From contig CAZECN010000001.1 in NCBI GenBank assembly GCA_964510575.1, positions 2,131 to 66,130 on the forward strand: a stretch of DNA of 64,000 nt, written 5' to 3'. Shown piece after piece: positions 4,810 to 24,077 of the stretch. Within the stretch, counting starts at the first letter, position 1. Each line of letters opens with the position of its first letter. Source of the DNA: an uncultured Bdellovibrionales bacterium. Its GTDB lineage: Bacteria; Bdellovibrionota_C; UBA2361; SZUA-149; CALKYB01. The notes beneath the pieces were generated by a model that was not told where the DNA came from, made no database searches, and saw only the letters and a list, made by a program, of their open reading frames with translations. Made by a program: the position numbers and the translations under genes.

Positions 4810-6387
4810 ATGGAAATCAAAGCTCAGGAAATTAGCAGAATTCTTAAAGAGCAGATCCAGGACTATGATGCCGGAGTTGAGCTTGCTGAAGTGGGAAGTG
4901 TGCTTTCGGTCGGTGATGGTATTGCCAGAATACATGGCCTTGAAGGCGTTGCCGCCGGTGAGCTGCTTGAGTTCCCGGGAGAGGTTATGGCAATTGCCCT
5001 TAACCTTGAAGAAGACAACGTCGGAGCCGTTTTAATGGGTGAGACTTCCTCGATTAAAGAAGGGGATATCGTAAAGCGAACCGGAAAAATTGCTGAGGTT
5101 CCAGTCGGTGAGGCCTTGGTCGGGCGTGTGGTCAACGCTCTTGGTCAGCCAATCGATGGTAAGGGTCCTATCGAAGCTAAAGAAACTCGAAGAATTGAGA
5201 TTAAGGCTCCTGGTATCATGGCTAGAAAGAGTGTTCATGAGCCTCTTCAAACTGGCCTTAAGGCTATCGACACGATGGTTCCAATTGGTCGTGGCCAGAG
5301 AGAGCTAATCATTGGAGACCGTCAAACTGGCAAGTCGGCGGTTGCCCTGGACACAATCATCAACCAAAAGGGTAAAGGCGTTACATGTATCTATGTAGCT
5401 ATCGGACAGAAGCGTTCTAGTGTCGCCCAAGTAGTGGACAAGCTCCGTGAAGAAGGAGCTCTGGATCATACAATTATTGTTTCAGCTTCAGCTTCTGAGC
5501 CAGCTCCTCTTTCCTTTATTGCTCCTTATTGTGGTTGCACAATGGGCGAATACTTCCGGGATAACGGTAAGCATGCTCTCATTGTTTACGATGATTTGTC
5601 TAAGCATGCTGTAGCTTACAGAGCTATTTCGCTGCTTCTAAGAAGACCTCCAGGACGTGAAGCTTATCCTGGAGATGTTTTCTACCTTCACTCCAGGTTG
5701 CTAGAGCGTGCTGCTAAAATGAGTGATGAGCAGGGAGCAGGATCGTTAACTGCCTTGCCTATCATTGAAACTCAGGCTGGAGATGTGTCTGCTTATATTC
5801 CAACTAACGTAATTTCGATTACTGATGGTCAGATATATTTGGAGTCGGACCTTTTCTATTCTGGTGTCCGCCCAGCTATTAACGTTGGACTTTCAGTTTC
5901 TAGGGTTGGTGGTTCTGCTCAGGTTAAAGCTATGAAAAAAGTAGCTGGAACATTGAGGCTAGACCTTGCCCAATATCGAGAAAAGCAGGCTTTTGCTCAG
6001 TTTGGTTCAGACCTTGATGAATCTACTCAAGCCCAGCTTTCAAGAGGTGAAAGGTTGGTTGAAGTTTTGAAGCAGGGACAATACGAGCCGATGGAAGTTG
6101 AGCTGCAAATTGTTTCAATTTTTGCTGCTAACAACGGATTCCTTGACGAGCTGGAAGTTGCAGATATTGGTGAATATGAAAAAGAATTACATCAATACGT
6201 TCAAGCCAACGCTAAGGAAGCTCTAGACGCGATCAGAGAAAAAGGTGCCACTAACGACGAACAGAACGCGGCGTTGAAGGAAGCAATTGGTAGTTTTACT
6301 AAAGACTTCTTGGCTACTAAAGGAGCAGCTCCGGCAGCTTCAGCAGCTAAGTCTTCTTCTGGGTCTGCAGCAGGAGCAGCGGCGTAA
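4810..6387 (+). CDS. atpA: FoF1 ATP synthase subunit alpha, with an unusual Ala/Ser-rich C-terminal tail of about 20 aa
   Basis: Walker A GDRQTGKS, conserved alpha blocks ([39 protein letters not shown]). ATG at 4810 follows the RBS GGAGAAGAG. The tail [24 protein letters not shown] is non-canonical. Confidence 0.95.
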
Positions 6388-7337: not shown

Positions 7338-8819
<1,482 letters not shown>

Positions 8820-8826
8820 AATTTTT

Positions 8827-8858
8827 AGAGGTTCCTAAAAGGGGCCTCTAATTTTTTA
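8827..8858 (+). terminator. Hairpin plus T-run between atpD and atpC (candidate attenuator or partial terminator)
   Basis: AGAGGTTCC-TAAAA-GGGGCCTCT followed by AATTTTTT. Confidence 0.35.
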
Positions 8859-8895
8859 GTTTTAGAGTTATTACGAGACAGAGAGAAACCTCACC

Positions 8896-9315
8896 ATGAG
8901 TGCAGAATTCGAACTTGAAATTCTAACCCCAGGCAAAAAACTATTTGGAGAAAAAGTCTCCGAAGCGATAGTTCCTGCTTGGGATGGTGAGACTGGTATT
9001 CTTGCCAACCATGAAAACTTTGTTGGAAAGCTAGGAACTGGCGCTCTTAAAATTGTTCAAGAAGGTAAAGATTTTTGGTACATGGTTAGTGGCGGAGTTT
9101 ACGAAGTCCGTGACGGAGTTGTCTCTGTTTTAGCTCAAGTCGCTGAAGAAGCCGCTCAAGTTGATATCGAATCAGCTAAGGAAATAGACGAAAAACTTTC
9201 CTCTGAACTTCCTAAAACCAATCTTAACACAATTGCTGGTCAGAATATGACTATGGAATTGGAGAGGGCGAGGGCAAGGCTTGAAGTCTATAACCGAACC
9301 AAGTCCGTCCATTAA
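8896..9315 (+). CDS. atpC: FoF1 ATP synthase subunit epsilon
   Basis: 139 aa. N-terminal beta-sandwich pattern (LEILTPGKKLFGEKVSEAIVPAWDGETGILANHE) and position after atpD. Confidence 0.85.
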   Translation: MSAEFELEILTPGKKLFGEKVSEAIVPAWDGETGILANHENFVGKLGTGALKIVQEGKDFWYMVSGGVYEVRDGVVSVLAQVAEEAAQVDIESAKEIDEKLSSELPKTNLNTIAGQNMTMELERARARLEVYNRTKSVH

Positions 9316-9652: not shown

Positions 9653-11476
9653 ATGCTAAGACTAGTAGTCATACCAGCCTATTTGGCTATATTTCACTTA
9701 AGTCTTGAATGGCTTTTTTTGGCAACAAAACCCTCATTTCTATCGAGGCTTTCTTACCTTGATCAATTCTTGGTTTATTTTAATTCTCTTGGCTTACCAA
9801 TTATCACTATTGTTTTAGTTTTTACAGTTCTTGTAGCTATCACCAAGGTCTTGTTTAAAGGATTCCCAATAAATTGGAGCAAAATAGTCTGGTGTATTCC
9901 TGCTGCCGCCATATTGGCATCCTTATGGTTTCTTCTTGCTAATACGTTCACTTATAACTTGTTTGGTCAGAGCATATTAGTAGAGCAAGGACGAGGTAGA
10001 CTAGTATACCTGCTTGTATTTGCTTTACTCTACACTTATTCCTTTAGTGTTTTGAATAAATTGATTAGAGAAAGTTTTTGGAAATACTATGAAAGAAAGT
10101 TACTGCTAGTTTTAGTGACTTTAGCCTTAGTATCAGTATGTTCCTGTCTCATAAGTAATCGACATTTAGAGGCTTCTTTAGACGATCTGAAGTTTGACTT
10201 GGATGCTAAAAGCGAACTACCTGATATTATTTTACTCTCTTCAGACGCTTTACTTTCATCTCATATGTCGGTTTATGGTTACGAAAGAGAGACTACACCC
10301 TTTTTAGCCAGTGATGATGACAGTTGGCTGATTTATGAAAATGCATTTTCTAACGCCAATCGCTCAGCAGGCTCAGTGCTTGCAATGCTGACTGGCCGGT
10401 CTCCACTTCACACTAAGATAATAACTTATCCTGATATTCTTCGTGGGCAAGATTCCCTCAGCCATTTTGTTGGACTGATTAGAAGTAAAGGCTATCGAAC
10501 CTTAGACATAAGTATTCGTGATTACGCTGATGCAGTAGATCGAAACATGTGCCTTGGCTTTGATTACGCCACTGGACGTAAATTGGATCAAGGCCTTTAC
10601 TCTATTCTAAGGAACTATCCTTCTTTACTTTGCTCAGATGAATTCTTTTTTCTTTCAAGAGTCTTTAGAAGATTAAACGAGCATTTGAAGCACACGCTTT
10701 ATCTAAAAAAAGTATCACTGTCCTGGCATAGTGTGACTAAAAAAGTTGATTTTTTTGAACAAGATGTAAAAAAGATGGATCGTCTTATGGAGTTTATTGA
10801 AAGCTCTAAAAAGCCGATATTTGCCCATGTGCACCTGTTGGGAACTCATGGACCGATGTATAGCCCTAAAAGCGAAGCCTTTTCAGGTGGACGTGACCAA
10901 AGTGAAGATCGAGAAATAGATTTCTATGATGACGCGATCAGAGACTTTGACCACCATATTGAACGGCTTATTTCGAGTCTGAAAGAAATAGGTAAACTAG
11001 AACAAACCTTAATAGTTATTCACTCTGACCATGATCGACACTTTAGAGTGGGTGGTCGTATACCACTTATGTTTAGATTTCCTAGGAAAGAGTTTATTGG
11101 TCGAAAACATCTTAACGCTCAGCTGTTAGATATCGCCCCTACTATTTTAGACTATCTTGGATCGGCAGAGCTGGACTGGATAGATGGGGAGAGTCTTTTT
11201 AATACTGACCTTGAGCCTGATCGTTTGTTGGTTGGCCTATCAGATATTTACCCATTTAAGCATTACTATTCAGCAGAACCTCCCTTTTTTAATATTGACT
11301 CTATCGAGCTTATCAGATGCGATAGACAGCTCTCCTATTCGGTTGACTCGAAAGAGATTACTGAAAGGCGTATTAAGGGGCATACCAAGCCATGTGAGAG
11401 TAATCCTTGGGATCGACCCGGGCAAGCTATGCGAGACATAGAGCAGCAAATTTCTATTTTTCTAAGCTCTGACTAA
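9653..11476 (+). CDS. Membrane-anchored alkaline-phosphatase-superfamily enzyme (LtaS/EptA/OpgB-like sulfatase-fold phosphotransferase)
   Basis: About 180 aa of N-terminal TM helices, then a sulfatase-fold domain: SAGSVLAMLTGRSP (Ser/Thr-nucleophile variant of the C-x-P-x-R region) and HLLGTHGPMY. The architecture matches LtaS/EptA-type transferases. Confidence 0.7.
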   Translation: MLRLVVIPAYLAIFHLSLEWLFLATKPSFLSRLSYLDQFLVYFNSLGLPIITIVLVFTVLVAITKVLFKGFPINWSKIVWCIPAAAILASLWFLLANTFTYNLFGQSILVEQGRGRLVYLLVFALLYTYSFSVLNKLIRESFWKYYERKLLLVLVTLALVSVCSCLISNRHLEASLDDLKFDLDAKSELPDIILLSSDALLSSHMSVYGYERETTPFLASDDDSWLIYENAFSNANRSAGSVLAMLTGRSPLHTKIITYPDILRGQDSLSHFVGLIRSKGYRTLDISIRDYADAVDRNMCLGFDYATGRKLDQGLYSILRNYPSLLCSDEFFFLSRVFRRLNEHLKHTLYLKKVSLSWHSVTKKVDFFEQDVKKMDRLMEFIESSKKPIFAHVHLLGTHGPMYSPKSEAFSGGRDQSEDREIDFYDDAIRDFDHHIERLISSLKEIGKLEQTLIVIHSDHDRHFRVGGRIPLMFRFPRKEFIGRKHLNAQLLDIAPTILDYLGSAELDWIDGESLFNTDLEPDRLLVGLSDIYPFKHYYSAEPPFFNIDSIELIRCDRQLSYSVDSKEITERRIKGHTKPCESNPWDRPGQAMRDIEQQISIFLSSD

Positions 11477-11589
11477 AGTTCCTTTGGTCTGTTTGGCTTA
11501 ATGAATATACTGAAACCAGTTTAAATTCCGTGTCTGGCAGTGCTACGCACTTTATACCCCTTTACGACAGGTACAGAAAAAGCCAGAAT

Positions 11590-11925
11590 TTAAAGTAGAC
11601 GGGGTATATACTGCGCCTCATTTAAATTTCGGTTTAGCTAGACTAAGCATGGGCGCAGTATAAAGCCGAACTTTTAGTTCTGCCAAAAGACCATAGACTC
11701 AACCTCCAAGTATGCTTTTCAAGGCCTTTAGGCCTTGTCTGATTTTACTATCATTCAGAAAAACATGGGTAGGGTATTTGAACACTCTACTGGAAAAACG
11801 CTAGTCGCGTTTTACAGAGTTTTAGACGCAGTATCTGTCTTATGGCCATGCTAGCGCATGGCCGATATACTCAACCCTGCTAAACGCATAAAGGACCAAA
11901 TTTAAATCAGGTTGAGTATATAAGT
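11590..11925. repeat. Copy A of a roughly 330-bp noncoding repeat element, in an intergenic leader upstream of the 12024 gene
   Basis: Aligns block by block with the reverse complement of 19215-19535 at about 85% identity. Contains TATATACTGCGCC (11605-11617) / GGCGCAGTATAA (11652-11663), the perfect 20-nt palindrome GGCCATGCTAGCGCATGGCC (11844-11863), and TATACTCAACC (11866-11876) / GGTTGAGTATATA (11910-11922). Confidence 0.8.
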
Positions 11926-12023
11926 TTAAAGTCTTTTACCGTTGCCAAAACTTTGGCCCCATCTGATATTGACTATATCCAGTGGTTTAATTGAGCAGTG
12001 ATAAATAAGAGATAGGAACTTTT

Positions 12024-13322
12024 TTGAATTTAGCTTTAACTGATAGTTTTATCACGGATCTAGTTAATTCTAAGCGTTTGATTTATCGCTTTGTTCGAAT
12101 TTTACTGTTCTTACTATTTGCAGCACTGGCAATAGATAACTTTCGAGCTGGGATGGATTCCCTGCAAGAAAGACATGTGTTTGGAAAAGATTTTTTGCAA
12201 GAGTACTTGCTTGCTGTTGCTACTGTTAGAGGAGAGGATCCATATCAATCAGTTTCACAATTAGAGAAAAAGTTTCTTAATATTGCAGGAGAGACCAATG
12301 TTTTTCCACATGCGACCCCTCACCCTCCCTCTTTAATTCCTTATATTCTTTGGATGGAGAAGTTTGATTACTTCACCATGGCTAGTTTTTGGATGGTAGC
12401 AGAGGTTTTAATGACTTTTACTTCTGTCTTTTTTTGTTGGAGATATCTTTCTTTGACGAAGATTAGCCCATATTCACTTTTTTCTTTCCTCGCCTTTGTT
12501 GCAGGCTCTCAAGTCTTTAGAAGTGAATTAATATCTGGCCAACTAAATTCCGTCTTATTGCTTCTTGTTACAGGAATGCTGATCTTTGAAGATAGAAAGA
12601 AAGATCTTCTAGCTGGCACTTGTTTAGGCTTATGCCTTTCAATAAAATTTTTTGGAATTGCTTTTCTCGTATTCTACTTGCTTAAGCGTAAATTTAAATT
12701 AGTTATTGTTAGCGTATTAATTTTCTTATTTAGCTTGGGAGTGAGCTCTGTTCTTATTTCAGTGGAGACAACTTTTGATTATTTTATTTCAATTGCTCCT
12801 CAAGTCTCCAAGCTTTACCAAGGAGATAGTCATAATTTTTCTCCACTAGTTCTTCCTCAAAGAATATTTGAAGGAACCCATTCGCTAGTATCTACGAAGA
12901 ATAAGGCAATAGAACCGTTGGTTTTATTGCCTAGCCTAATTGAACCACTAAAATATCTTTTGGCATTATTTTTACTACTTGTCTCTTTATTACAAGCTGT
13001 CAGTGAAAAAGAGAGAAGGCTTCAAATTCCCAGCTTGATAGTTGGAAGTTTGGCGGTCTTCCCTAATCTTTGGGAGCATAGTCTCCTTGTTTTAATTCCA
13101 GTTTTATTGCCGACCTGGTCGAATAGCTCAAGAATCAAGCTAAGTGAAGTTTTAATACTAGTTCTTTTCTTTTTTGGTAACTTTGGTTTGTATTTTTATG
13201 ATAAAAGTTCACTTGGTTTTTGGGAAGGCTTGGTGACTTTAATTCCAACTGCTATTCTTATAGCTGTTATCCTGAATAGATCGGAAACCTTTTTCAGAAA
13301 TGAAAAAGATATTATCTCTTAG
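12024..13322 (+). CDS. Polytopic membrane protein, possibly a GT-C-fold glycosyltransferase (DUF2029/PMT-like)
   Basis: 432 aa with more than 10 predicted TM helices. TTG start. Sits in the island with LtaS-like enzymes. No diagnostic motif could be verified. Confidence 0.4.
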   Translation: MNLALTDSFITDLVNSKRLIYRFVRILLFLLFAALAIDNFRAGMDSLQERHVFGKDFLQEYLLAVATVRGEDPYQSVSQLEKKFLNIAGETNVFPHATPHPPSLIPYILWMEKFDYFTMASFWMVAEVLMTFTSVFFCWRYLSLTKISPYSLFSFLAFVAGSQVFRSELISGQLNSVLLLLVTGMLIFEDRKKDLLAGTCLGLCLSIKFFGIAFLVFYLLKRKFKLVIVSVLIFLFSLGVSSVLISVETTFDYFISIAPQVSKLYQGDSHNFSPLVLPQRIFEGTHSLVSTKNKAIEPLVLLPSLIEPLKYLLALFLLLVSLLQAVSEKERRLQIPSLIVGSLAVFPNLWEHSLLVLIPVLLPTWSNSSRIKLSEVLILVLFFFGNFGLYFYDKSSLGFWEGLVTLIPTAILIAVILNRSETFFRNEKDIIS

Positions 13323-13498
13323 CTTGCGAGATACTTTTCTATTTTTCGCTTTTTATTTCCTCGACTTAAACAGGCTCTTTTAGGTATTCTTTGTAGTAAG
13401 GCTTAAATGCTCTATGACTGAAGACTTGTCTCTAAGCTAATGCGGTCTTATGGCAAAAAATCACTATTCACCTCAATTTTTTAGTCTTTCTGATCGTT

Positions 13499-14725
13499 AT
13501 GAGTGAGCTTCATCTATTCAAACTAAATATCGAAAACAGAGAAACTAGTATTCAGGCAGTCTTATTGTGTTTATTCTACTTAGTCTTAAGTTTTTTCATC
13601 TTACGCGCGAAAACTGTTACCCAGGACACTTATATTCCCAAAAATCCCAGAGGACAGCTGGTTAAAACAGCTATTTCTTTTGCAGATGGCGAGGGTCTTT
13701 ATCAGAAAAGATTTCAAGACTTAGATAAAGCTTTATCAACTTATACCTCAGGCCCTGGTCAGTCTTATCTCCAGAGTGAACTACCATTTAATAGTTCTCC
13801 CTCAACTTGGGAGCCAAGTTTGTATCAAGATATATTTTCTGTTTCCACTAGTGGAAAACTAACTCCGAAACATCCTTGGTTTGTTTCATTAGTAGCCAGC
13901 CCTTTTTACTCAATTGCAGGTCTTCCAGGGGTTTGGTTTTTTAACCAGCTTTTGCTAGCAGGTTTTTTTGTTTCTGGCTTTTTACTTCTTCGTGAGCACG
14001 ATAAAAGTCTATTTCCTTTCATCTTTGCTTTTTCTTTCCCTTTACTTTTGTTTCAAACAGTTTTTTTTGCGAGGGCTGGACTTAGTCACGATTTGTTCGC
14101 AGCTTTTACAATTGTCTTAGCTTTTGCCGCAGTAAGAACATGCCCTTCTTTAGCGATGTTATTATTTGGAATTAGTGCTTATTGTAGAGTAACTAACTTA
14201 TCTTTCTTGCCTTTTTTGTTGATTTATAATCATTTCGGAGAAAATAGATCACTAGCCTCTTTGCACCAGAAATTAAGAAGTTTCACTGTATTGTTCATTG
14301 TAGTTTTACCATTATTTCTAACCAACCTAATCATTTGGGGTTCACCGATTTCAGGGTCTTATTCCAGACTTCCAGTTTATGAACATGGAGAGAGAGTTTT
14401 TGGTCACTCAAAGAATGACCACTTTTTTGATTTTAAAATCGCGATAGATCATGGGATGTCCAGGGTCACAGAGGGGAGGGATGGTCTTTTAAGAAATTTG
14501 CCGATTTTCATTTTTACCTTTCCTTTGGCTATGCTTCTTTTTTGGCTTGGTAAAAAGCGGGATTTTTATCTCCTTTTTGGGGCGGCAGTGTTTCAAAGCT
14601 TACTTTATTTGAGCTTCAACCACTGGGAGGGTGCTGTCGGATGGCGTTTTGTTTTAGTGGCTGGAATGTTTATGGCTGTGGTACTCGGTCGATGCATTGG
14701 GGATATTTGTTCTTCTAGAGTCTGA
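13499..14725 (+). CDS. Polytopic membrane protein of unknown function (possible GT-C-like)
   Basis: 408 aa, multiple TM helices, same strand as and downstream of 12024..13322. Confidence 0.4.
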   Translation: MSELHLFKLNIENRETSIQAVLLCLFYLVLSFFILRAKTVTQDTYIPKNPRGQLVKTAISFADGEGLYQKRFQDLDKALSTYTSGPGQSYLQSELPFNSSPSTWEPSLYQDIFSVSTSGKLTPKHPWFVSLVASPFYSIAGLPGVWFFNQLLLAGFFVSGFLLLREHDKSLFPFIFAFSFPLLLFQTVFFARAGLSHDLFAAFTIVLAFAAVRTCPSLAMLLFGISAYCRVTNLSFLPFLLIYNHFGENRSLASLHQKLRSFTVLFIVVLPLFLTNLIIWGSPISGSYSRLPVYEHGERVFGHSKNDHFFDFKIAIDHGMSRVTEGRDGLLRNLPIFIFTFPLAMLLFWLGKKRDFYLLFGAAVFQSLLYLSFNHWEGAVGWRFVLVAGMFMAVVLGRCIGDICSSRV

Positions 14726-14976
14726 AGCAGCACAAAATAATTGTAGGTGAAAAGTTGGTTTTCGTTTTGATTTCTTAGTATTACTTTAACATTACATTTT
14801 TATAAAATAACTCGTGAGCTTTTGGCTAAGGGTGCCGTCGGTATTACCTTCTTTGATTATTTTGTTATCAATTATAGTTAAAAACAGCCATTCCTCGTTG
14901 ATAAATCAATAGAAATAAAAATCGTACCTTATGTAAATGAATAGAGGGTAAAAAATCAATTCAGTAGATCGGAGAA

Positions 14977-17001
14977 CTATTCACTGAAGCTTGGTTTCTC
15001 CACCGCCACAATAGAATTGTGTTGAGGAGGAAAGTAGTTTTTCCTTTCAAAGACAGGCAAGTGTTTGTAGTATGTCAGTTGCTTATTTTCAAACAAAGTG
15101 AGTATTTCGGATAACTTCTCATATACTTCTGGGTTCTTTAGTTGATTTCTTTCGTGAGGATCTGAGGCTATATTGAATAAACGCTCACCTCGCCCTCTAT
15201 AATTCCTAGTTAACTTGAAAGGATAGTAAATTAGAGCTGACTCATCGGTGATTGATTGATTCGTGGTATAAATCGTCCTAGCCGGCTTTGCTTGCTGATC
15301 TGCTTCTCTTAAGAGACTTTGTCCTTGATGGTTTGGATGAGGCTCAAGACCTGCAAGATGTAATATTGTAGGAGGTAAGTCTATATGCCCGACTGGGAGA
15401 CTTACCGTGTGTCGAGGTTTAAAGTTGGCTGTGCTGCTAAATATTATGGGCACGTTAATTGCTTCTTCATAAAGGTAAGAAGCATGGTTTGCAATACCAT
15501 GCTCGTTGAACATGCTTCCATGATCTCCAGTAATCAAAAGAATTGTATTGGAAGGCAGTGTTCGAGCGAACTTTTCTATGATTTCATCTAGGTAGTTTAA
15601 ACAGTTCCAGTAACGGTTTTGCATTGTAGCTGTAAGTCTATCGGGATAGTAGACAAAGCCAGGAATTCTTGAAATTTCGGTTGGTTGAAAATTAGTTCTA
15701 CTAGTTCTATTTTGATTGAATGGAAAATGAGTTGAGTACAAATATGCCATAGCAAATACAGGCTTGTTTTCTGAACCGCTCTCTTTAACGAAGTCCTGGA
15801 TTAAGCTTAGCTTTTTTTCGTCAGAGCCTGCTAAGTCTTGTCTATGAGTTTCCTCAGCAGAATGCCCTTTATCCTGCCCCCTAGTTTTTTCTTCAGTTGA
15901 AATAGTAGGATCGAAATATAAATTTAATCTAGGAGAATCTGTAACTCGCCGAGTAACTTGCCACTGTTCAGCGAGAAGGGCTGAGTTATACCCAGATTCA
16001 CTAAGAAGGTCGTATATCCGGGTAAAAGGATAGTCTAGCGATAAGTGGGCATCCTTTTTTATATCTTTGAGTGGATATAGACCGGTGATCAGAGTGGTAA
16101 AACTATCCCCTGTATCAGCTGCTTGAGAATATCCTTTTGGGAAAAAAAGTCCGGTTTGAGAAAGTTTATTTAGGTAGGGCATTATATCTTGCCCTTCTAC
16201 CTTTTTACCTATGACGTCAGCACGTAAAGCCTCAACAACTAAAAATATAATATTAGGCCTGTTTTCAAAGGGGATTGATGGAGAGTAACTATATTCTTTG
16301 TTTGCGGGCACTAAATCTAGATTGACAGTTTGAATTTTTCGACTAGAGCTATCGTAAAGAAATTCTCCAAATAGGCTAAGGGAAGGGAGAGAGTAGTGAT
16401 TTACTAAAAGTCCGAGTTGGCCAATTTGGTTGGGAGACATTCTCGACTTATTATTTTGGATAAAAATTAAATTAGTTGCTAGAAGAGTAACCAAAAGAAA
16501 AATCTTTGGTTTTAGTGAGCTGTTCTTTTTCGAAAAAAAACATGAAAAGTAGACTAGGGTAACCGCTGTTAAGGGAATGGTCAGTGCGAATAATATTTCT
16601 CTCGCAGATAAAAGATCGAGTAGTTGGCTAATATCCAGCAGAAATAAAGATAAGAATAAGTCGCTTTGATGTAGAAAGCTTCCTGAAAAATACCACTTAG
16701 CCCAACTTGCCCAACTAGTTATAAGCCAAAGGCACATAATTATAGCGGGAAAAAGACCTACTATCTTGACTAAAAAGCCTTGGGAGTCCTGTAAAAGTTT
16801 TTTTATTATAGAAGCTAGAATCGATAGAAGGAGTAGTTCAATCACTAGAGCGGTGAATACATGATTATGGCACGCAAAGTAGGCTTTGGCTTCTATGGCC
16901 AACCAGCTTGTTTCTTCTAGTTGTTGCTTTCTAAACCAGATGGATGGCAAGAGTGTTGCTGAAAATAAAACGAGATACTTTAGGTAGGTCTTAGTTCTCA
17001 T
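14977..17001 (-). CDS. Membrane-anchored alkaline-phosphatase-superfamily enzyme (LtaS/EptA/OpgB-like)
   Basis: About 230 aa of N-terminal TM region, then a sulfatase-fold domain: NIIFLVVEALRAD, TGDSFTTLITGLYP (Thr in place of the FGly Cys), LLITGDHG. Confidence 0.7.
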   Translation of the reverse strand: MRTKTYLKYLVLFSATLLPSIWFRKQQLEETSWLAIEAKAYFACHNHVFTALVIELLLLSILASIIKKLLQDSQGFLVKIVGLFPAIIMCLWLITSWASWAKWYFSGSFLHQSDLFLSLFLLDISQLLDLLSAREILFALTIPLTAVTLVYFSCFFSKKNSSLKPKIFLLVTLLATNLIFIQNNKSRMSPNQIGQLGLLVNHYSLPSLSLFGEFLYDSSSRKIQTVNLDLVPANKEYSYSPSIPFENRPNIIFLVVEALRADVIGKKVEGQDIMPYLNKLSQTGLFFPKGYSQAADTGDSFTTLITGLYPLKDIKKDAHLSLDYPFTRIYDLLSESGYNSALLAEQWQVTRRVTDSPRLNLYFDPTISTEEKTRGQDKGHSAEETHRQDLAGSDEKKLSLIQDFVKESGSENKPVFAMAYLYSTHFPFNQNRTSRTNFQPTEISRIPGFVYYPDRLTATMQNRYWNCLNYLDEIIEKFARTLPSNTILLITGDHGSMFNEHGIANHASYLYEEAINVPIIFSSTANFKPRHTVSLPVGHIDLPPTILHLAGLEPHPNHQGQSLLREADQQAKPARTIYTTNQSITDESALIYYPFKLTRNYRGRGERLFNIASDPHERNQLKNPEVYEKLSEILTLFENKQLTYYKHLPVFERKNYFPPQHNSIVAVEKPSFSE

Positions 17002-17208: not shown

Positions 17209-17781
17209 TTATCCTATTTTATAGTTTAGGCACATTTTTCTACTTTTAAATTTTTTTTGAAGAGAAACTTTAAAACCGTCTTTCTTCAACTCTAGTGTCT
17301 CCTGGTGGTCGGATTGACTATGCTCCCAAACCAAGTGGACAGGGTAGGCTAGTGATATTTCTTTCATAAAACCCTCTTCCCTAAAATTTAGTAAATACCA
17401 CTCCCACTCCAGCCGAGCTAACTCTGGCAGATAGAACAAAGACTTAGCCTCAGGTCTAACTTCAGTCAGCTCTTCTAGGTAGCTTTCAAATCGATCACCG
17501 TATTGATTTAGATCAGGCTCATCTGGGGGAAATTTATGAAAGTAGTCTGCCGCGATTTGTTTGAAGTAATCTTCTCCAACAACTTTGCAGCAGGCGGGAA
17601 AGGTATCTTTTAGCGCTCCATAAAGGTTGGAGCGAACAGTCTGGCGATAGATGCTGATTTGTTTTTGAGGAGAACGCTTTCCTCCACTGGGAAAGAGGTC
17701 TAGCACTCCTGTCTCCTCATTAAGCCTGGGAGAGACAATAGCTCCTTTAATAAGAGCTTGGATTTCAGCCAGTCGCTTCAT
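17209..17781 (-). CDS. DUF2063-family protein (BufC/MbnC-like partner of MNIO enzymes)
   Basis: The N-terminal domain matches the DUF2063 pattern (IQALIKGAI...YRQTVRSNLYGALKDTFPACCKVVGEDYFKQIAADYF). Overlaps the upstream DUF692 gene by 17 nt. Confidence 0.6.
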   Translation of the reverse strand: MKRLAEIQALIKGAIVSPRLNEETGVLDLFPSGGKRSPQKQISIYRQTVRSNLYGALKDTFPACCKVVGEDYFKQIAADYFHKFPPDEPDLNQYGDRFESYLEELTEVRPEAKSLFYLPELARLEWEWYLLNFREEGFMKEISLAYPVHLVWEHSQSDHQETLELKKDGFKVSLQKKFKSRKMCLNYKIG

Positions 17782-18631
17782 GAAGCAGAGGCTGAGGGTT
17801 TAGTATCTGGTCTGCCTTGGAAGCTTCACAAGCGAGCACTGAAAATTCAGGAATATCGTTGTCCCACTCAATTAAAGAAGGAGTATCCCCACAATGTTCA
17901 ATTGCTGCTCTGTATATCTCCCAAACATCGTCTGGAACTTCCCGACTGTGAGTGTCGAGCATATAACCATCTCGCTCTTCTCCACCAGCTAAGTGAATCT
18001 CGCCAACCCTTTCTGCTGGGATGGAGCGAATATAATCCATGGCTTTGTCTCCATGGTTATACTGGCTAACGTAGATATTGTTTACATCTAGCAAAATACC
18101 GCAGTCAGCTTTTTCAGCCACGGCAGAGATAAACTCAGCCTCAGGCATTTGAGACTCTTTAAAAGTTAAGTAACTTGAAACGTTTTCAATCAATAACTTA
18201 CGTCCGAGAAAATCCTGAATTTCAGAGATTCTACCAGCAACGTGATTGATCGTCTCTTCAGTGTAGGGCAGGGGAAGTAGGTCATGAAAGTTGACCCCAT
18301 GGGCAGATGTCCAGCAAAGGTGTTCTGAGACCCATGCGGGTTGGAAGCGGTCAGCTAGAGCCTTTATTTTACCAACATAGTCCCAGTTTATAGGGTCAGT
18401 TGAGCCAACTGACATACCAACGCTGTGCATGGTAATTGGATAATGAGAACGTATTTGTTCAAGGTCAGCTAGAGCTTCACCTTCCGGGCCAAAGTAATTA
18501 TCAGTGAGAACTTCAAACCAGTTTATGTCTGGCTTATGCTCTAAAACGAAATCTAAGTGTTGGGGGCGCAGACCGATACCGGCTCCCGATACCGGCCTGC
18601 TTGATAATTGGTAATGAGTATTATTCTTCAT
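17765..18631 (-). CDS. DUF692 / MNIO (multinuclear non-heme iron oxidative) enzyme, BufB/MbnB-like
   Basis: GAGIGLRPQH... WVSEHLCW... LLPLPYTEE... LLIENVSSY... GCGILLDVNNIYVS... EIHLAGG... LIEWDNDIP. These are the full set of conserved DUF692 blocks. Confidence 0.8.
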   Translation of the reverse strand: MKNNTHYQLSSRPVSGAGIGLRPQHLDFVLEHKPDINWFEVLTDNYFGPEGEALADLEQIRSHYPITMHSVGMSVGSTDPINWDYVGKIKALADRFQPAWVSEHLCWTSAHGVNFHDLLPLPYTEETINHVAGRISEIQDFLGRKLLIENVSSYLTFKESQMPEAEFISAVAEKADCGILLDVNNIYVSQYNHGDKAMDYIRSIPAERVGEIHLAGGEERDGYMLDTHSREVPDDVWEIYRAAIEHCGDTPSLIEWDNDIPEFSVLACEASKADQILNPQPLLHEATG

Positions 18632-18649
18632 TACTAAGGATTGACTAAT

Positions 18650-19075
18650 TTACTTAGTCATATCTCCCATTATTTTGTCAGACATTTTATCGACCATGTC
18701 AGTTGTTTTATCTGCCATTTTGCCGGTCATGGCTTTAGTTTTATCAGTCATGGCAGCAGCTTTGTCGGTCATTTTATCAGCCATGCCTGCAGCAGGTTTT
18801 TCCCCTACAACTTTAGCTCCAACGATCTTGTCGCAAGCGCCTTTAGGAAGATAAAGCCATTCAGTTGGGTCGGAGTCCTTGTCAGCTTTACCAGAGCAGC
18901 TGTGACGGCCATCAGTTGAGCCACAATCGTTTTTTCCAGCCTTAGAGACACCAGCGCATTTTTCCCATGCTGTTGGAGCACCTGGAACACCAGCTTGAGC
19001 TTCACCAGCAAGAGATAAAGTAAGGGCTCCAGCAGCTGCTAGTCCTAGAAGAGTTGAGTCTTTTTTAATAGTCAT
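18650..19075 (-). CDS. DUF2282-family (bufferin-like) RiPP precursor: Sec signal peptide, 4-Cys core, C-terminal Met-rich repeat tail
   Basis: Signal peptide MTIKKDSTLLGLAAAGALTLSLAGEAQA. The core WEKCAGVSKAGKNDCGSTDGRHSCSG...DPTEWLYLPKGACDKIVG matches the DUF2282 consensus. The tail GMADKMTDKAAAMTDKTKAMTGKMADKTTDMVDKMSDKIMGDMTK has 9 Met in 44 aa. The gene lies 19 bp upstream of the MNIO gene. Confidence 0.75.
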   Translation of the reverse strand: MTIKKDSTLLGLAAAGALTLSLAGEAQAGVPGAPTAWEKCAGVSKAGKNDCGSTDGRHSCSGKADKDSDPTEWLYLPKGACDKIVGAKVVGEKPAAGMADKMTDKAAAMTDKTKAMTGKMADKTTDMVDKMSDKIMGDMTK

Positions 19076-19214
19076 TAAATTTATGCTCCAAAAGTGGTGA
19101 GTGCTTGCTATTCAGAACACCCACTTCAAATTAGCCAATATATTACTGCTTTGGACGATTACTTCGTAAGGTTAGTTAACCCGTTATAAGTTAATTTTTC
19201 AAATTTTTAAGCTC

Positions 19215-19535
19215 TTCAGGTGATATACTCAACCTACTTTAAATTTCGTCTTTTAAGGATGTGACCGGGTTGAGTATATTCGCCATGCGTTAGCATGGCC
19301 AAGAGACCAATACTGCGCCTGAAGCTCTCTAAAACGCGACCAGCGTTTTTCTATTAGAGTCTCCAAATACCTCGATTCTCTGGATTAGTAATTAATTTAG
19401 ACAAGACCTAAAGGTCTTGAAAAGCATATTTAGAGGTTGAGTATATGGTTTTTTGGCCTCGCCTGCGCTCGGCTCTATACTGCGCCTATCCTCAATCTAT
19501 CAAAACCTAAATTTCAATGAGGCGCAGTATCTTTG
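19215..19535. repeat. Copy B (inverted) of the roughly 330-bp noncoding repeat element, upstream of the bufferin-like operon and downstream of pstB
   Basis: Reverse complement of copy A. Motifs: GATATACTCAACC 19222-19234, GGGTTGAGTATAT 19267-19279, palindrome 19282-19300, ATACTGCGCC 19309-19319, GGTTGAGTATATGG 19435-19448, TATACTGCGCC 19486-19496, GGCGCAGTATC 19521-19531. Confidence 0.8.
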
Positions 19536-19565: not shown

Positions 19566-20423
19566 CTAGCCTCGAACGCCTTGTAGATAATCCTTAGTCA
19601 GTTTCTCAGCAGGGGCGGCAAATATTTCCGATGTTTTTCCGGTCTCAATAAGGCAGCCAGAGCCATTTCTAACCCAGCAGACTAGTAGGTTGTCAGAGAT
19701 TCTCTTGGCCTGCGCCAGGTTATGAGTGACCATTAAAACAGTATAATTGTCGCGAAGGCTCAAAATAAGTTGTTCAATTTTCTCAGATGAAACTGGGTCT
19801 AGGGCACTGCATGGTTCATCCATAAGTAGAAGCTCTGGCTTTAGGCTAAGAGTTCTAGCAATACAAAGGCGTTGTTGTTGTCCACCAGATAGATTGCAAG
19901 CTGATTGTTTCAATCTAGTTTTTACTTCATCCCACAAGCCAACATCTTTTAGCGATTGCTCCATTCTTTCATCCCTAATAGAGCTTTTGGAAACTCCATG
20001 CTCTTTAAGAGGAATATGAAAATTTTTTCTAATTGAAAAAGGAAAAGGAGCTGGTCTTTGGAATACCATGCCAATCTTTCGCCTTAGTTCTATCAAATCG
20101 CATGATGGAGATAGGATATCTGTATTGCCAAAACTAAGTTCACCCCTGAGTTTCGAGCCGGGGATTAAGTCTACCAAGCGATTTACTGAGTTTAAGAAAC
20201 TAGTTTTTCCGCAACCAGAGGGCCCAACCAATGCAGTAATCTTACAAGGTTCAATCTCAATGTTTACATTGTCGTAAGCTTTGAAGTCTCCATAGTGAAG
20301 GCTTAGGTTTTTAGCTTTTAAGGAAGCACAAACACTACCTGGTCTTTCAGAACAGTCAGAAACCTTAGTTAAAGCACTACCGTTATTTGAATAGTCTTTT
20401 TTTAGTTTTACTTGTCCCGACAC
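19566..20423 (-). CDS. pstB: Phosphate ABC transporter ATP-binding protein
   Basis: Walker A GPSGCGKTSFL, signature LSGGQQQRLCIARTL, directly downstream of pstA. It has an N-terminal extension of about 30 aa, so the true start may be internal. Confidence 0.9.
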   Translation of the reverse strand: MSGQVKLKKDYSNNGSALTKVSDCSERPGSVCASLKAKNLSLHYGDFKAYDNVNIEIEPCKITALVGPSGCGKTSFLNSVNRLVDLIPGSKLRGELSFGNTDILSPSCDLIELRRKIGMVFQRPAPFPFSIRKNFHIPLKEHGVSKSSIRDERMEQSLKDVGLWDEVKTRLKQSACNLSGGQQQRLCIARTLSLKPELLLMDEPCSALDPVSSEKIEQLILSLRDNYTVLMVTHNLAQAKRISDNLLVCWVRNGSGCLIETGKTSEIFAAPAEKLTKDYLQGVRG

Positions 20424-20431
20424 ATCAGCCT

Positions 20432-21262
20432 CTATGTTTTAGCACCCAGGACTTTTCTGGTTAGAAAAGTGGAAGTTAAGTTTATTACAATTAATGCGAC
20501 TACTAGAACCACAGCTGTGCGGTAGGCATTTTGATTACCACCAGGTACGTTCATAGCTAAATCGAAAATATGGACTGACATGCTTCTACCAGAGTCCATT
20601 ACAGACTCAGGCATTCTCAATAAGTAGCCGCTGGTAAAAAGTAAGGCGGCAGTTTCTGATAAGGCCCTTCCGATACCCAGGACCAGCCCAGCTGAAATAG
20701 TATTTGTTGAAAGAGGTAGAATTATTCTTCGTACTTGAGCTGTTCTTGAAAGTCCTAGTGAAGCACCAGTCAGTTTAAATTGACGATAGTTTTCGGATAT
20801 TCCTTCTTCAAAAATTCTAATTAAAAAAGGTAAAACCATGAAAGCTAGAGTTAAACCACCTGCCAGTATCGAAAAGCCAAATCCTAAGTATATAACAAAA
20901 AAAGAGTAACCAAAGAGTCCAAAAACAATAGAGGGAGTTGCAGCCAAGGTATCCAAAGCAGTCGAAATTAGGTTGTGCACTAAAGGATTTTTTTCAGAGA
21001 AAACAGCCAGAAATACAGCCGTAGCAATTGAAAGTGGGACTGATACCCCAAGGCAAATGGATAGGATTAGAAATGATGAATTAATTACTTCAAGAATTCC
21101 TCCAGCTCTACCTGCTTCACTTGAAACAGTTGTCAGAAACTCAAAGCTTAAAGCTCCTGATTGGTAAATTAAACTAGATAGTATTAGAAAAAATATGCCG
21201 CAGAAAAATAAAGCAGAGATAAAAGATAGGCCTTTCAGGATATATTCAGATTTAAAGCTCAT
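20432..21262 (-). CDS. pstA: Phosphate ABC transporter permease
   Basis: Polytopic permease with an EAA-like loop (GIGRALSETAALLFTSG). Operon position. Confidence 0.85.
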   Translation of the reverse strand: MSFKSEYILKGLSFISALFFCGIFFLILSSLIYQSGALSFEFLTTVSSEAGRAGGILEVINSSFLILSICLGVSVPLSIATAVFLAVFSEKNPLVHNLISTALDTLAATPSIVFGLFGYSFFVIYLGFGFSILAGGLTLAFMVLPFLIRIFEEGISENYRQFKLTGASLGLSRTAQVRRIILPLSTNTISAGLVLGIGRALSETAALLFTSGYLLRMPESVMDSGRSMSVHIFDLAMNVPGGNQNAYRTAVVLVVALIVINLTSTFLTRKVLGAKT

Positions 21263-22158
21263 CTGACTGGCTCCTCTTGAGTTTTTAAAAATAACCGGCC
21301 AGTGATGAAAACAGTTAAAACACTAAGGAGCAGTAAAAACCCTGATAAGAAAAGAGCACTTTGATGGCTGCCATAGGCGTAACCCATTTCCAGTGCAATA
21401 TTCCCTGTTAACGTTCTTACGGGGTCAAGCATACTTTCGGGCATTTGAACTACGTTCCCGCACACCATGACCACCACCATTGTTTCACCCATTGCTCGAG
21501 CAAGGGCTAGGACCAAACCAGTGGAGATTCCTCGAGATGCTAATGGAGTGGCAATTTCCAGAATAAATCTAGCCTTTCCAATTCCTAGGCCTTTCGATGT
21601 CACTCTAAGTTCTGAGTTTAGATTCTGATAAGCTGAAACGGTGCTTACAACGATGGTAGGTATGATCATTATTGCCAGAACAATCGCCCCAGCAAGAACG
21701 CTGAGACCTGGAGCCCTAATATTTAAAAGCAATGGAACTAAAACGACTAAGCCCCATAGACCAAGAACGACAGAAGGTAAGCCAGCTACAATTTCTGTAA
21801 CCCGATGAAGAAAAAGTCGAGAAACTCCTTTGCAAAAAAAGTGAATATAGACTGCAGTAAACCAGCCTATAGGAGCTGCAATAATAAGAGCTAGGATTGC
21901 CACAGTGACTGTAGCTATTATCATCTCTAACAATCCAAACTGTCCTTCAGCTAAATTTAATTCGGGAGCCCAAGTTGAATCTGAAAAAAACCTAGAGCCG
22001 CCAATTTGGCTTAAAGCCATGGAAGACTCTTTAAGTAGGAAATAAAAGATAAAGAAAATTACAAGGACTGAAAGGCTTGAAGCAAAGCCGAGTAGCGTTT
22101 TTGTGAAACTATCTTTTGAGCTGGCTGACAAAATACTTCCTGAACTTAGAATAGGCAC
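21259..22158 (-). CDS. pstC: Phosphate ABC transporter permease
   Basis: Polytopic permease with an EAA-like loop (ALARAMGETMVVVMVCG). Overlaps pstA by 4 nt. Confidence 0.85.
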   Translation of the reverse strand: MPILSSGSILSASSKDSFTKTLLGFASSLSVLVIFFIFYFLLKESSMALSQIGGSRFFSDSTWAPELNLAEGQFGLLEMIIATVTVAILALIIAAPIGWFTAVYIHFFCKGVSRLFLHRVTEIVAGLPSVVLGLWGLVVLVPLLLNIRAPGLSVLAGAIVLAIMIIPTIVVSTVSAYQNLNSELRVTSKGLGIGKARFILEIATPLASRGISTGLVLALARAMGETMVVVMVCGNVVQMPESMLDPVRTLTGNIALEMGYAYGSHQSALFLSGFLLLLSVLTVFITGRLFLKTQEEPVR

Positions 22159-22164
22159 CTGACT

Positions 22165-23025
22165 CTATTGTGGAGCAACAAAAGCCATTCCTTCGACTAA
22201 GTCTTTAACTTGGCTCGAAACCGCAAACTGAACAAATTCTTTTGAAGATGGTGAAAGCTCCTTTTTTGTTATTAAAACCAAAGGTCTAATGATTGGAAAG
22301 GAGCCGTTTTTTACATTTTCGGCAGTGGCTGCAACCCCAGATAGGGGCAAGGCTCTTATCTTAGAACTTCTTTTCTGTTCGAATTCAGTAGTTCCGATTG
22401 AAAGGTAAACCAGGGCACCTTGATTCCCCTCCAATAGTTTTACGCACTGTTGGTTTTCACCAGCTACTACGTCAGGCTTATAGGCAGCAGCCTTTATACC
22501 AAGGTAATCTTTTACTAGCTCTTTTTCAGAGCGACCTTTGGCTCGGTCAATAACTGTGATCTCAAGGTCTTGGCCACCAAGTTCTTTCCAGTTTGAAATT
22601 TTTCCGCTGTAGATATTGGCAAGCTGAGCTTGAGATAATTCTTTGACTGGGTTTTTACTGTTAACGACAAACGCTACACCATCCAAGGCCACTGTATGAC
22701 TTTTGACGATGGCCTCTTCTTCAGGAAATAAGGCTCTGGAGGACATTCCCACATCAGAGAGTCCTTTTATTACATCGGTGATTCCTTTCGAAGAGCCTCC
22801 GGTTTGGACATCCACTCGCAGAGAGGAGTCAGACTCTTCTAGCCTTTTAGCTATTTCTGCGGCCAAGGGTGCTAATGTGCTTGAGCCAGATACTGAGACC
22901 TTGGTGCTTTCAGCTTGAGCCGCAAAAGGTAACAGAAATAAAGAGCTTAAGATTAAAGAGAAAAATGAGATTGTTTTAACTTTCTTCATAAAAGCCTGCT
23001 TTCGGTATTGAAAATAAATTTGCAA
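22165..23025 (-). CDS. pstS: Phosphate-binding periplasmic protein
   Basis: Signal peptide then a PstS-family fold (SGSSTLAPLAAEIAKRL...GTTEFEQKRSSKIRALP). The likely start is MKKVKT at 22989. Confidence 0.85.
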   Translation of the reverse strand: MQIYFQYRKQAFMKKVKTISFFSLILSSLFLLPFAAQAESTKVSVSGSSTLAPLAAEIAKRLEESDSSLRVDVQTGGSSKGITDVIKGLSDVGMSSRALFPEEEAIVKSHTVALDGVAFVVNSKNPVKELSQAQLANIYSGKISNWKELGGQDLEITVIDRAKGRSEKELVKDYLGIKAAAYKPDVVAGENQQCVKLLEGNQGALVYLSIGTTEFEQKRSSKIRALPLSGVAATAENVKNGSFPIIRPLVLITKKELSPSSKEFVQFAVSSQVKDLVEGMAFVAPQ

Positions 23026-23151
23026 GATTAGCTACGACGACCGCCGCTAAATGTTACAGTAAATCCGTAATAATGGAAAAATTCAACCTTGAAACAGGCT
23101 TAAATTATAGTATTTAGGCTTTTAGAGGGGGGCGCCAAGGAAAGATTAAAC

Positions 23152-23447: not shown

Positions 23448-24077
23448 TTAGCTTTTTTTAGCCACAGCCTTAACTACTGCTTTACCATTCTTCATAACAA
23501 TTTTGTAGCTTAGTTTTTTTACCCCCTTTTTTTTCAGGGCCTGAGCTTGATTCACCAAACTTTTCTTAAATGAGCCGTAGTTCAGGTCTCCGGCGTTACC
23601 ACCAGATTTTTTGATAGCTTTTTCATAACTATCAAAAAGCTGCTGAAAGCCCTTTTCTGCAGCGCCTGCCTGAGTATTGGCTTTGGCGGCCTCTGCCAGC
23701 TCCTTTTCCCGTAATTCAGCCTTGAAAACATCTCTTTGGTATCGTCCCTCTTCCCTGGCTTTTAAAGTTCTAACCCAATAAGTTTCATAGGTTTGTAGGC
23801 GCGTAACAAGTTGGCGCAGCCTGAAGGTATGGGATGAGTGTTTAAAGGGGGCTGCAAGTAGAGCTCTCTTCATTTTTGTTACTTCTTTGTGCTCTTTGTC
23901 TGGAGCTATAGTAATTATGTCGATGAAGTATTGCTCATAAATTATGCGCAACTCCTCAACCCGCCTTTCAAAAAGATCGATTTGGAGATCCAGTTTTCGC
24001 CTGTTCTCAGCACCTGATCTCAGACCTTTTGGCTCTGCCCTTTTTTTCTTCTTGTCGGTCTCGCCTTTCTTGGCCAT
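23448..24077 (-). CDS. Lys-rich basic coiled-coil protein with a histone H1-like C-terminal tail, unknown function
   Basis: 209 aa. N-terminus KKGETDKKKKRAEPKG, C-terminus KKKGVKKLSYKIVMKNGKAVVKAVAKKS. No enzyme motifs. Confidence 0.45.
   Translation of the reverse strand: MAKKGETDKKKKRAEPKGLRSGAENRRKLDLQIDLFERRVEELRIIYEQYFIDIITIAPDKEHKEVTKMKRALLAAPFKHSSHTFRLRQLVTRLQTYETYWVRTLKAREEGRYQRDVFKAELREKELAEAAKANTQAGAAEKGFQQLFDSYEKAIKKSGGNAGDLNYGSFKKSLVNQAQALKKKGVKKLSYKIVMKNGKAVVKAVAKKS

Follow-up and report, generated by a model that had tools for sequence, protein, structure and literature searches.

The 64,000-nt stretch of DNA analysed here at its full length (the window; contig CAZECN010000001.1 from an uncultured marine bacterium) carries three co-oriented open reading frames (ORFs) on the minus strand at 17209–19075, namely 18650–19075 (141 amino acids, aa), 17765–18631 (288 aa) and 17209–17781 (190 aa). 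By family membership the three genes are a Buf1-type bufferin biosynthetic cluster, to which the thiooxazole chemistry and the copper role would be carried over by homology, and we put the probability of a functional three-gene cluster (bufA-bufB-bufC) on the core chromosome of this bacterium at roughly 0.8. The unusual parts are a methionine-rich tail of the precursor and a short partner protein, both of which are lineage-specific, and the cluster is a clade-level variant within the bufferins. Neither a Met-tailed precursor nor an RRE-reduced partner of PME-type 1 was found described in two survey papers on the family.

In the bufferins of Caulobacter vibrioides, the precursor is a DUF2282 protein with a Sec signal, in which the two central cysteines are converted to 5-thiooxazoles by the MNIO BufB and its DUF2063 partner BufC (PMC11626156). 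The two outer cysteines form a disulfide, and the product, which has a very high affinity for both Cu(I) and Cu(II), gives the cell protection against copper (PMC11626156). A mass change of -4 Da per modified Cys belongs to this published chemistry (PMC11626156). Thousands of bufferin clusters were described in a later survey (PMC12452194), so the present cluster without its variant traits would be an ordinary new member.

Family assignment and proposed maturation

The features of the cluster are as follows.

18650–19075 (including the stop codon), minus strand: bufA, Buf1-type bufferin precursor, 141 aa (PF10048; four invariant Cys; 77 homologues)
18992–19075, minus strand: putative Sec signal peptide of BufA, residues 1–28 (KK n-region, hydrophobic L9–L22, A-Q-A then G29; read from the sequence)
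18794–18991, minus strand: bufferin core domain of BufA, residues 29–94 (structure prediction and homology to C. vibrioides Buf1)
18653–18793, minus strand: Met-rich tail of BufA, residues 95–141 (composition, predicted helix, comparison of homologues)
17765–18631, minus strand: bufB, MNIO (DUF692) bufferin maturase, 288 aa (NF050167, PF05114, metal ligands)
17209–17781, minus strand: bufC-like partner, 190 aa (PF09836; DUF2063 domain and remnant of an RRE-type domain)

In a preliminary description of this DNA, the three genes had been read as a precursor, an MNIO and a DUF2063 partner. The ORFs do lie at these coordinates, and hidden Markov model searches with the DUF2282, DUF692 and DUF2063 profiles placed all three proteins far above the cut-offs, so that all three Pfam families are matched. 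The spacer between bufA and bufB is 18 nt and the ATG of bufB starts at the 19th base past the bufA stop; bufB is thus immediately downstream as described, and the distance of 19 bp given before differs trivially. The overlap of 17 nt between bufB and bufC is as described.

BufB matches the NCBIfam equivalog NF050167 (MNIO family bufferin maturase) at 364.5 bits (cut-off 310) and PF05114 (MbnB_TglH_ChrH) at 355.5 bits. In an alignment with solved MNIOs, all of the residues at the positions of the MbnB iron ligands are present (H69, H104, E149, D182, N185, H213, D226, H228 and E255). All nine positions are kept in an enzyme that had been described as complete. The ratio of nonsynonymous to synonymous substitution rates (dN/dS) of bufB is 0.028; for bufB, the bufA core and the domains of bufC, this ratio was calculated pairwise with the related locus L005 as reference.

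BufB also scores on the HvfB model (248.7 bits) and weakly on ApyH, MbnB and ChrH, and the top NCBIfam match of the partner is HvfC, as would be expected if the cluster belonged to another MNIO class of ribosomally synthesised and post-translationally modified peptides (oxazolin/HvfABC, methanobactin or other). We regard such a membership as highly improbable. BufB stays below the NCBIfam cut-offs of HvfB (360), MbnB (67.8 bits against 325), ApyH and ChrH and reaches the bufferin equivalog cut-off alone, and the precursor is a DUF2282 protein with the four-Cys Buf1 pattern, containing no EGKCG repeats and not resembling an MbnA-like peptide.

BufA matches PF10048 (DUF2282, now named BufA1 in Pfam) over residues 37–87 at 76.1 bits (cut-off 22.4), and its 77 homologues all match the same family. 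The cysteines are located at 40, 51, 60 and 81 in the context KCAGVSKAGKNDC...HSC...PKGACDKI, and in this respect family, positions and context all agree with what had been noted before. In the alignment of 53 homologues, the four Cys are invariant together with K39, G42, N49, P77, G79 and K83. The core was predicted by AlphaFold2 (AF2) with a predicted local distance difference test (pLDDT) of 86–94 over residues 41–90 and strands at 36–41, 72–77 and 88–94, and the dN/dS of this part of the gene is 0.039. By analogy with C. vibrioides Buf1 (PMC11626156, PMC12452194), Cys51 and Cys60 would become thiooxazoles and Cys40 and Cys81 would be joined in a disulfide. No relevant match was returned by a sequence search of PDB with BufA, nor was anything found in PDB with its model by Foldseek, and it appears that no bufferin structure is deposited there.

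The putative signal peptide has a 14-residue hydrophobic core and a pLDDT below 50, and the equivalent segment of the homologues ends with AQA, AHA or ANA before VPDxP. Cleavage is therefore predicted after Ala28.

Based on homology to Caulobacter Buf1, a pathway can be proposed. BufA would be synthesised as a pre-protein of 141 aa, on which the multi-iron oxidase BufB, in a complex formed through the helical DUF2063 domain of the partner, would act in the cytoplasm and oxidise Cys51 and Cys60 to 5-thiooxazoles (-4 Da each). The modified protein would be exported by Sec and cleaved by signal peptidase after Ala28, and Cys40 and Cys81 would then form the disulfide. The mature periplasmic BufA of 113 residues would chelate Cu(I) or Cu(II) by the S and N of the thiooxazoles and in this way buffer copper stress. 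What we observed directly is which genes are present and to which families they belong, the conserved ligands, the signs of selection and the architectures of the truncated partner and the tail.

L001, L005 and L006, the nearest relatives, contain the same three-gene module, and their MNIOs are 80–94% identical. In L006 it is located in a completely different neighbourhood, which supports a self-contained module.

The short BufC-like partner

The partner had been called a DUF2063 protein of BufC type, and one half of this holds: the DUF2063 domain is present (PF09836, DUF2063/HvfC_N; 69.3 bits, cut-off 27.2, residues 15–102), whereas most of the C-terminal RRE-type domain is missing, so it is not a canonical BufC/PME-type 1 protein. 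Against NF050145 (HvfC) it reaches 39.6 bits (cut-off 142) and covers profile positions 22–115 of 237. PME-type 1 (DUF2063) partners are reported to have a narrow length range of 250–260 residues and to contain DUF2063 followed by a complete RRE-type domain (PMC12452194), and this complete domain is not found in the 190-aa partner. What it contains is a complete DUF2063 helical domain (about residues 1–133) and a remnant of three strands and one helix, which is also seen in the AF2 model (pLDDT 91.9) with helices up to residue 133, a strand at 139–144, a helix at 148–156 and strands at 170–177 and 180–188. In the alignment, a 26-residue internal deletion follows the LEWEWY motif and the last ~50 residues are gone, which in full-length homologues form the three helices of the winged-helix-like RRE.

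The short form is a property of the clade. Its length is 186–191 aa across the clade, down to 49% identity, while partners from related loci are 244–291 aa (those uncut by a contig end and unfused) and the full-length proteins outside the clade among 58 database homologues are all 248–297 aa. A metagenome scan with the alignment of the short partners gave no confirmed relative, and no relevant match was found in a sequence search of PDB. By structure, the top Foldseek matches of the partner model are TglI (8hi7_A, E = 1.4e-4), NGO1945 (3dee, probability 0.99) and, weakly, MbnC (7dz9_C).

Selection differs along the protein. The dN/dS of the DUF2063 N-domain is 0.068 against L005, while the C-terminal remnant evolves fast (dN 0.70, dN/dS 0.48), indicating that the working part kept by selection is the helical DUF2063 domain and that the RRE-type domain is reduced. 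As the RRE helices are lost, substrate recognition would have to rest on the surface of the MNIO and the DUF2063 domain together with the folded BufA core, in place of a canonical RRE groove. The signal/leader peptide is dispensable for Buf1 modification (PMC11626156), so that the core must be recognised, and this fits a partner with a reduced RRE-type domain. We infer that the short partner is sufficient for the maturation of BufA.

The same truncation can also be read as decay, in which the loss of the RRE helices disables precursor recognition and BufA is exported unmodified or the genes are becoming pseudogenes. All homologues outside the clade exceed the partner in length by ~70 residues, the partner covers just the N-terminal half of the HvfC profile, the substitution rates of the remnant are high, and bufB is split in one relative (L001). 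However, the short form keeps an intact frame of 186–191 aa even down to 49% identity, purifying selection on bufB and on the DUF2063 domain is strong, and all MNIO ligands are intact. Moreover, the translationally coupled overlap is kept (-17 in the window and L005, 4 nt in L006), the MNIO partner MbnC is similarly short (180 aa in 7dz9_C), and partners with truncated RRE are known among PME-type 2 proteins (PMC12452194). Because the reading frames are conserved and bufB is strongly constrained, decay is unlikely, and we keep to a functional cluster with a reduced partner.

The methionine-rich tail of BufA

Usually, a DUF2282 protein ends ~13 residues past the last Cys, at ...GEKPAK. BufA continues with residues 95–141, AAGMADKMTDKAAAMTDKTKAMTGKMADKTTDMVDKMSDKIMGDMTK, a segment of 47 residues with 9 Met, 9 Lys and 8 Asp (19% Met; 36% charged, D/K) in M-x-D-K repeats. 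AF2 predicts it as a single continuous helix at 99–140 (pLDDT 70–87). When projected on an ideal helix, seven Met (Met98–Met131) fall in a 60-degree arc with 4+7 spacing, and the last two (Met136 and Met139) are off this stripe. The preliminary description had left out the tail, the unusual shortness of the partner and a ~310-nt repeat element upstream of bufA.

The tail was found in 3 of the 77 homologues (P0001, P0002 and P0003), which are the closest ones with 76–95% identity. Among ~75 loci it is confined to the L001–L005 clade, and none of ~55 precursors from genome loci outside this clade contains it, except for a short version in L046. Of 18 loci retrieved in a metagenome scan with the precursor, all lack a Met tail, and their identity does not exceed 62%. 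The exception, at 5672–5968 of L046, is a bufferin precursor from a distant betaproteobacterial metagenome-assembled genome (MAG) that ends with a short Met-rich tail, ...GGMLVAKMDDGKMDAMKK, and the feature may have arisen there independently.

Within the clade, the tail is retained with 8–9 Met in relatives at 81–95% identity and in a shorter form at 76% identity; in P0003 it is reduced to MADKMVDKMADKMAK. The Met count stays at 8–9 among sequences that differ at 28% of tail positions, and the four long tails (window, P0001, L005 and P0002) share a C-terminal MTK in open frame, the shorter tail of P0003 ending with MAK. The dN/dS of the tail is 0.135–0.26, a weaker but real constraint.

In order to find homologues, residues 92–141 were searched with phmmer against 1.84 billion representatives, which gave two matches, both eukaryotic repeat proteins (a 2362-aa proteoglycan-like protein and a C-type lectin with MTGKVEE heptads). 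Both were judged compositional or analogous and rejected as homologues. The tail against Pfam and NCBIfam at E <= 10 gave only sub-threshold matches to YtxH (E = 0.01) and MT0933_antitox (E = 0.13).

As for its role, C-terminal tags are tolerated in Buf1 maturation (PMC11626156), which means that the pathway can accommodate a naturally occurring extension at this end. In its composition the tail strikingly resembles MrpX of Azospira suillum (Melnyk et al. 2015, PMC4436054), which reaches the periplasm through Sec and contains 20% Met and 44% charged residues. MrpX serves as a sacrificial hypochlorite sink, is recycled by YedY/MsrP and is controlled by SigF/NrsF (PMC4436054). In Caulobacter, sigma-F controls exactly buf1, buf2 and yedY (msrP) (PMC3511200). 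Speculatively, the tail could offer Cu(I)/Ag(I) additional thioether ligands, or its methionines could be a sacrificial sink of the MrpX type beside the copper site, and we offer the two together as a tentative suggestion, the likeliest of those considered for the tail.

The tail might be structural, that is, a coiled coil or amphipathic helix through which the bufferin forms oligomers or is attached to the membrane or envelope, so that a small protein stays in the periplasm. The single long AF2 helix points in this direction, as does the 4+7 spacing, which is an 11-residue periodicity with one apolar face. The sole database similarity with heptad repeats is to the neck of the eukaryotic C-type lectin P0151 (MTGKVEE repeats), and in related lectins the corresponding neck region forms coiled coils. 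The weak YtxH-like match, below the cut-off, is also to an amphipathic helix. But the apolar face is nearly all Met, with no Leu, one Ile and one Val, which is atypical of coiled coils and membrane anchors and typical of Cu(I)/Ag(I) Met motifs and MrpX, and Met136 and Met139 stand off the stripe. We consider a structural role improbable, if a serious candidate.

The tail could also be neutral in function, a low-complexity expansion that arose when replication slipped on a 12–21-nt repeat; this is a slightly better candidate and still doubtful. A weak 21-nt tandem repeat exists in the tail DNA, the repeat number differs among relatives (only MADKMVDKMADKMAK in P0003), and outside one very narrow clade the tail has no homologues. 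On the other hand, the dN/dS is far under 1, 8–9 Met are kept despite the 28% divergence, the frame is open to the same MTK end in four long tails, and the unrelated betaproteobacterial bufferin L046 ends independently with GGMLVAKMDDGKMDAMKK.

Surroundings of the cluster and known systems

Several points weigh against a functional bufferin cluster with the proposed variant traits. Modification, export and copper binding are all inferred by homology. With the full RRE-type domain missing and its remnant fast-evolving, the maturation complex could be impaired. In L001, an 81%-identical relative on a JGI BBAY59 contig, gene calling divides bufB into ORFs of 212 and 76 aa (8447–9260); bufA and the short bufC beside it are intact, and the split could be decay (frameshift or pseudogene) or a sequencing error. 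The helix of the tail was predicted from an alignment with just three tail-bearing sequences, and the tail is without a detectable homologue outside the clade in the phmmer, Pfam and NCBIfam searches. Its Met columns (5 of 7 conserved) are not clearly more conserved than its other columns (23 of 36) among the few close relatives. By tblastn, the 64-kb window contains no DoxX (three DoxX proteins of related loci as queries), no sigF/nrsF, i.e. no extracytoplasmic function (ECF) sigma factor or NrsF, and no MsrP-like sequence (query, E. coli MsrP). No copper-resistance gene was found among the window proteins scanned against Pfam and NCBIfam, and in the Pfam or NCBIfam scans of 37 window proteins there was no match to Oxidored_molyb.

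The absence of DoxX after bufC, already noted in the preliminary description, is ordinary, since DoxX (BufD), although frequent in Buf1-type clusters, is dispensable in Caulobacter (PMC11626156) and is absent from 11 of the 19 related DUF2282-MNIO-partner loci with enough downstream sequence to be evaluated (present in 8 of 19). Downstream of these 11, there is one HIT-domain gene, one ECF sigma gene and, in nine loci, no same-strand gene within 250 nt.

Some related loci have other precursor arrangements. L007, L011, L014 and L017 (Thiotrichaceae/Cocleimonas, one MAG labelled Aquificaceae) contain tandem DUF2282 precursor genes, and one copy of each pair shows a fifth Cys and a signal of lipoprotein type (…LLLTACGG…), as if a soluble Buf1 were accompanied by one anchored in the membrane. 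P0009 and P0010 are proteins of 149–150 aa with two tandem DUF2282 domains and eight Cys, and they match the Buf1/Buf1 fusions mentioned in PMC12452194.

Generally, the window is ordinary chromosome (ATP synthase, glmUS, trp genes, purT). The next gene, which had been described as LtaS-like, lies on the same strand at 14977–17001 after a 207-nt gap from bufC and encodes a 674-aa sulfatase-superfamily membrane protein with weak LtaS/arylsulfatase similarity. It was rejected as a cluster member, since in L001 and L006 no such gene follows bufC. Together with it, the region 9653–17001 groups further envelope-modifying genes, which encode a second LtaS- or EptA-like membrane protein of the sulfatase superfamily (607 aa), a glycosyltransferase of family GT87 (432 aa) and a multi-pass membrane protein of 408 aa without family match; the group may serve to modify glycolipids or the cell surface. 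On the other side, the pstSCAB phosphate ABC transporter operon (19566–23025) directly precedes bufA on the same strand. It has this position in L001 and L005 and not in L006, and read-through transcription into bufA may occur. A functional link is unsupported, because the adjacency is missing in L006 and is interrupted by a 345-nt insertion in the window, and pstSCAB was not taken as part of the cluster. Elsewhere in the window, a 209-aa protein (23448–24077) matches the MXAN_5187 C-terminal domain (39.2 bits, cut-off 30), a family whose occurrence gives the sole, tentative hint in the window at the taxon, a Myxococcota or Bdellovibrionota-like lineage, and two FG-GAP-repeat proteins of 952 and 610 aa (30023–32881 and 34953–36785) are flanked by proteins of 534 and 585 aa without family match.

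Two further features lie upstream of bufA.

19086–19089, minus strand: GGAG, a putative Shine-Dalgarno motif 10 nt upstream of the bufA ATG (read from the sequence)
19163–19187, minus strand: possible, weak ECF-type promoter ATAAC-N16-CGAA (block conserved in three orthologous loci)

The spacer upstream of bufA is 490 nt, compared with 125–146 nt in L001 and L005, and the difference is a ~345-nt insertion directly past the pstB stop. The bufA-proximal ~145 nt are conserved and hold a (G/A)TAAC-N16-CG(T/A)A block in the window, L005 and L001. This block is similar to the sigma-F motif of Caulobacter, GTAACC-N16-CGAA (PMC3511200), but its spacing is one base shorter; some Buf1 clusters are under the control of the SigF/NrsF system. 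This pattern is not enriched in the window (2 observed, 0.94 expected), the second match being just upstream of pstS (23033–23057). A sigma-F-type promoter of bufA is therefore a weak candidate and a lead only.

The insertion, absent from the orthologous spacers of L005 and L001, includes one copy (19223–19535) of the ~310-nt repeat element. The other copy (11608–11921) is located between a sulfatase-like gene and the GT87 gene in opposite orientation, and the two are 78–85% identical. The element contains nested inverted repeats (GGTTGAGTATAT / ATACTGCGCCT) with strong folding on either strand (z = -6.3 and -7.9), and an Rfam scan of the window, the element included, gave no match. It looks like a miniature inverted-repeat transposable element or a repetitive extragenic palindromic element. 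The two copies bracket a 7.3-kb segment with the GT87 gene, the 408-aa membrane protein gene, the LtaS-like gene and bufCBA.

As a defence against copper, bufferins have been recognised only recently and are very widespread, and the two variant traits touch on how an MNIO-partner pair recognises a folded, Sec-targeted substrate and on whether bufferins act alone. An RRE-truncated partner that is kept under selection beside a fully conserved BufB is a natural test of the need for the RRE-type domain. The Met tail, as a natural fusion, suggests that thiooxazole chelation and methionine-based handling of Cu(I) or oxidants cooperate in the periplasm, a link between bufferins and methionine which is otherwise hinted at only by SigF co-regulation in Caulobacter and Azospira. 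Both ideas taken together, that is, an MrpX-like methionine module fused to a bufferin and an RRE-type domain dispensable for Buf1 maturation, make a reading that we think rather unlikely to hold as a whole. If it did, BufA would be a bifunctional periplasmic protein, whose thiooxazole site chelates copper tightly and whose Met-striped helix feeds or holds extra Cu(I)/Ag(I), or sacrificially absorbs the oxidants of copper stress (HOCl, Cu-driven reactive oxygen species). Like a Rosetta stone, it would connect the bufferin arm of the SigF/NrsF regulon with the other arm, MrpX/MsrP, and Buf1 maturation would need the helical DUF2063 domain only, the RRE-type domain not being the recognition element for folded bufferin cores. 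If neither idea is true, this is one more bufferin cluster from an uncultured marine bacterium.

Compared with known systems, the cluster is closest in layout to C. vibrioides bufA1B1C1D1 (CCNA_03363-03366; Leprevost et al. 2024, PMC11626156), with which it shares a Sec-signal, four-Cys DUF2282 precursor, the gene order and tight coupling, a BufB-type MNIO followed by a DUF2063 partner, and the expected two thiooxazoles and one disulfide for periplasmic copper buffering. The differences are the absence of DoxX and of an adjacent sigF-nrsF, a partner of 190 aa instead of 254 aa without the RRE helices, a 47-residue Met-rich helical tail that gives a mature protein of 113 instead of 68 residues, and the host, an uncultured marine lineage and not an alphaproteobacterium.

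The partner resembles the PME-type 1/HvfC-BufC protein NGO1945 (PDB 3DEE) in its N-terminal DUF2063 domain (Foldseek probability 0.99; template modelling (TM) score 0.54/0.51), but has only three strands and one helix of the RRE-type domain. It is also comparable with the MNIO helper subunits MbnC and TglI (PDB 7DZ9 and 8HI7), of which TglI is the best structural match and MbnC a weak one (TM 0.38–0.40) of similar length (180 aa). With these two there is no sequence-level relationship, and their substrates are leader-bearing cytoplasmic peptides rather than Sec-exported small proteins. From methanobactin MbnABC the cluster is separated by the low MbnB score (67.8 against 325) and the DUF2282 precursor, and from oxazolin/HvfABC and Buf_EGKCG clusters by a BufA without EGKCG repeats and an HvfB score of 248.7 against 360.

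Met-rich Cu(I)/Ag(I) motifs are known in periplasmic copper proteins, such as the Mets motifs of Ctr1, PcoC/CopC, CusF and PcoE/SilE, with Met clusters at i/i+3-4 spacing, and proteins of SilE/PcoE type turn helical on metal binding. The BufA tail has its Met at the same i/i+3-4 spacing on a copper-linked periplasmic protein, but it contains neither His nor Trp, its repeat unit is M-x-D-K, and no homology exists. With MrpX it shares a high content of Met and charged residues (19% and 36% in the tail) on a Sec-exported protein, a likeness that is compositional only; MrpX stands alone and is encoded with yedYZ (msrPQ), whereas the Met segment here is fused to a bufferin, in a window without msrPQ.

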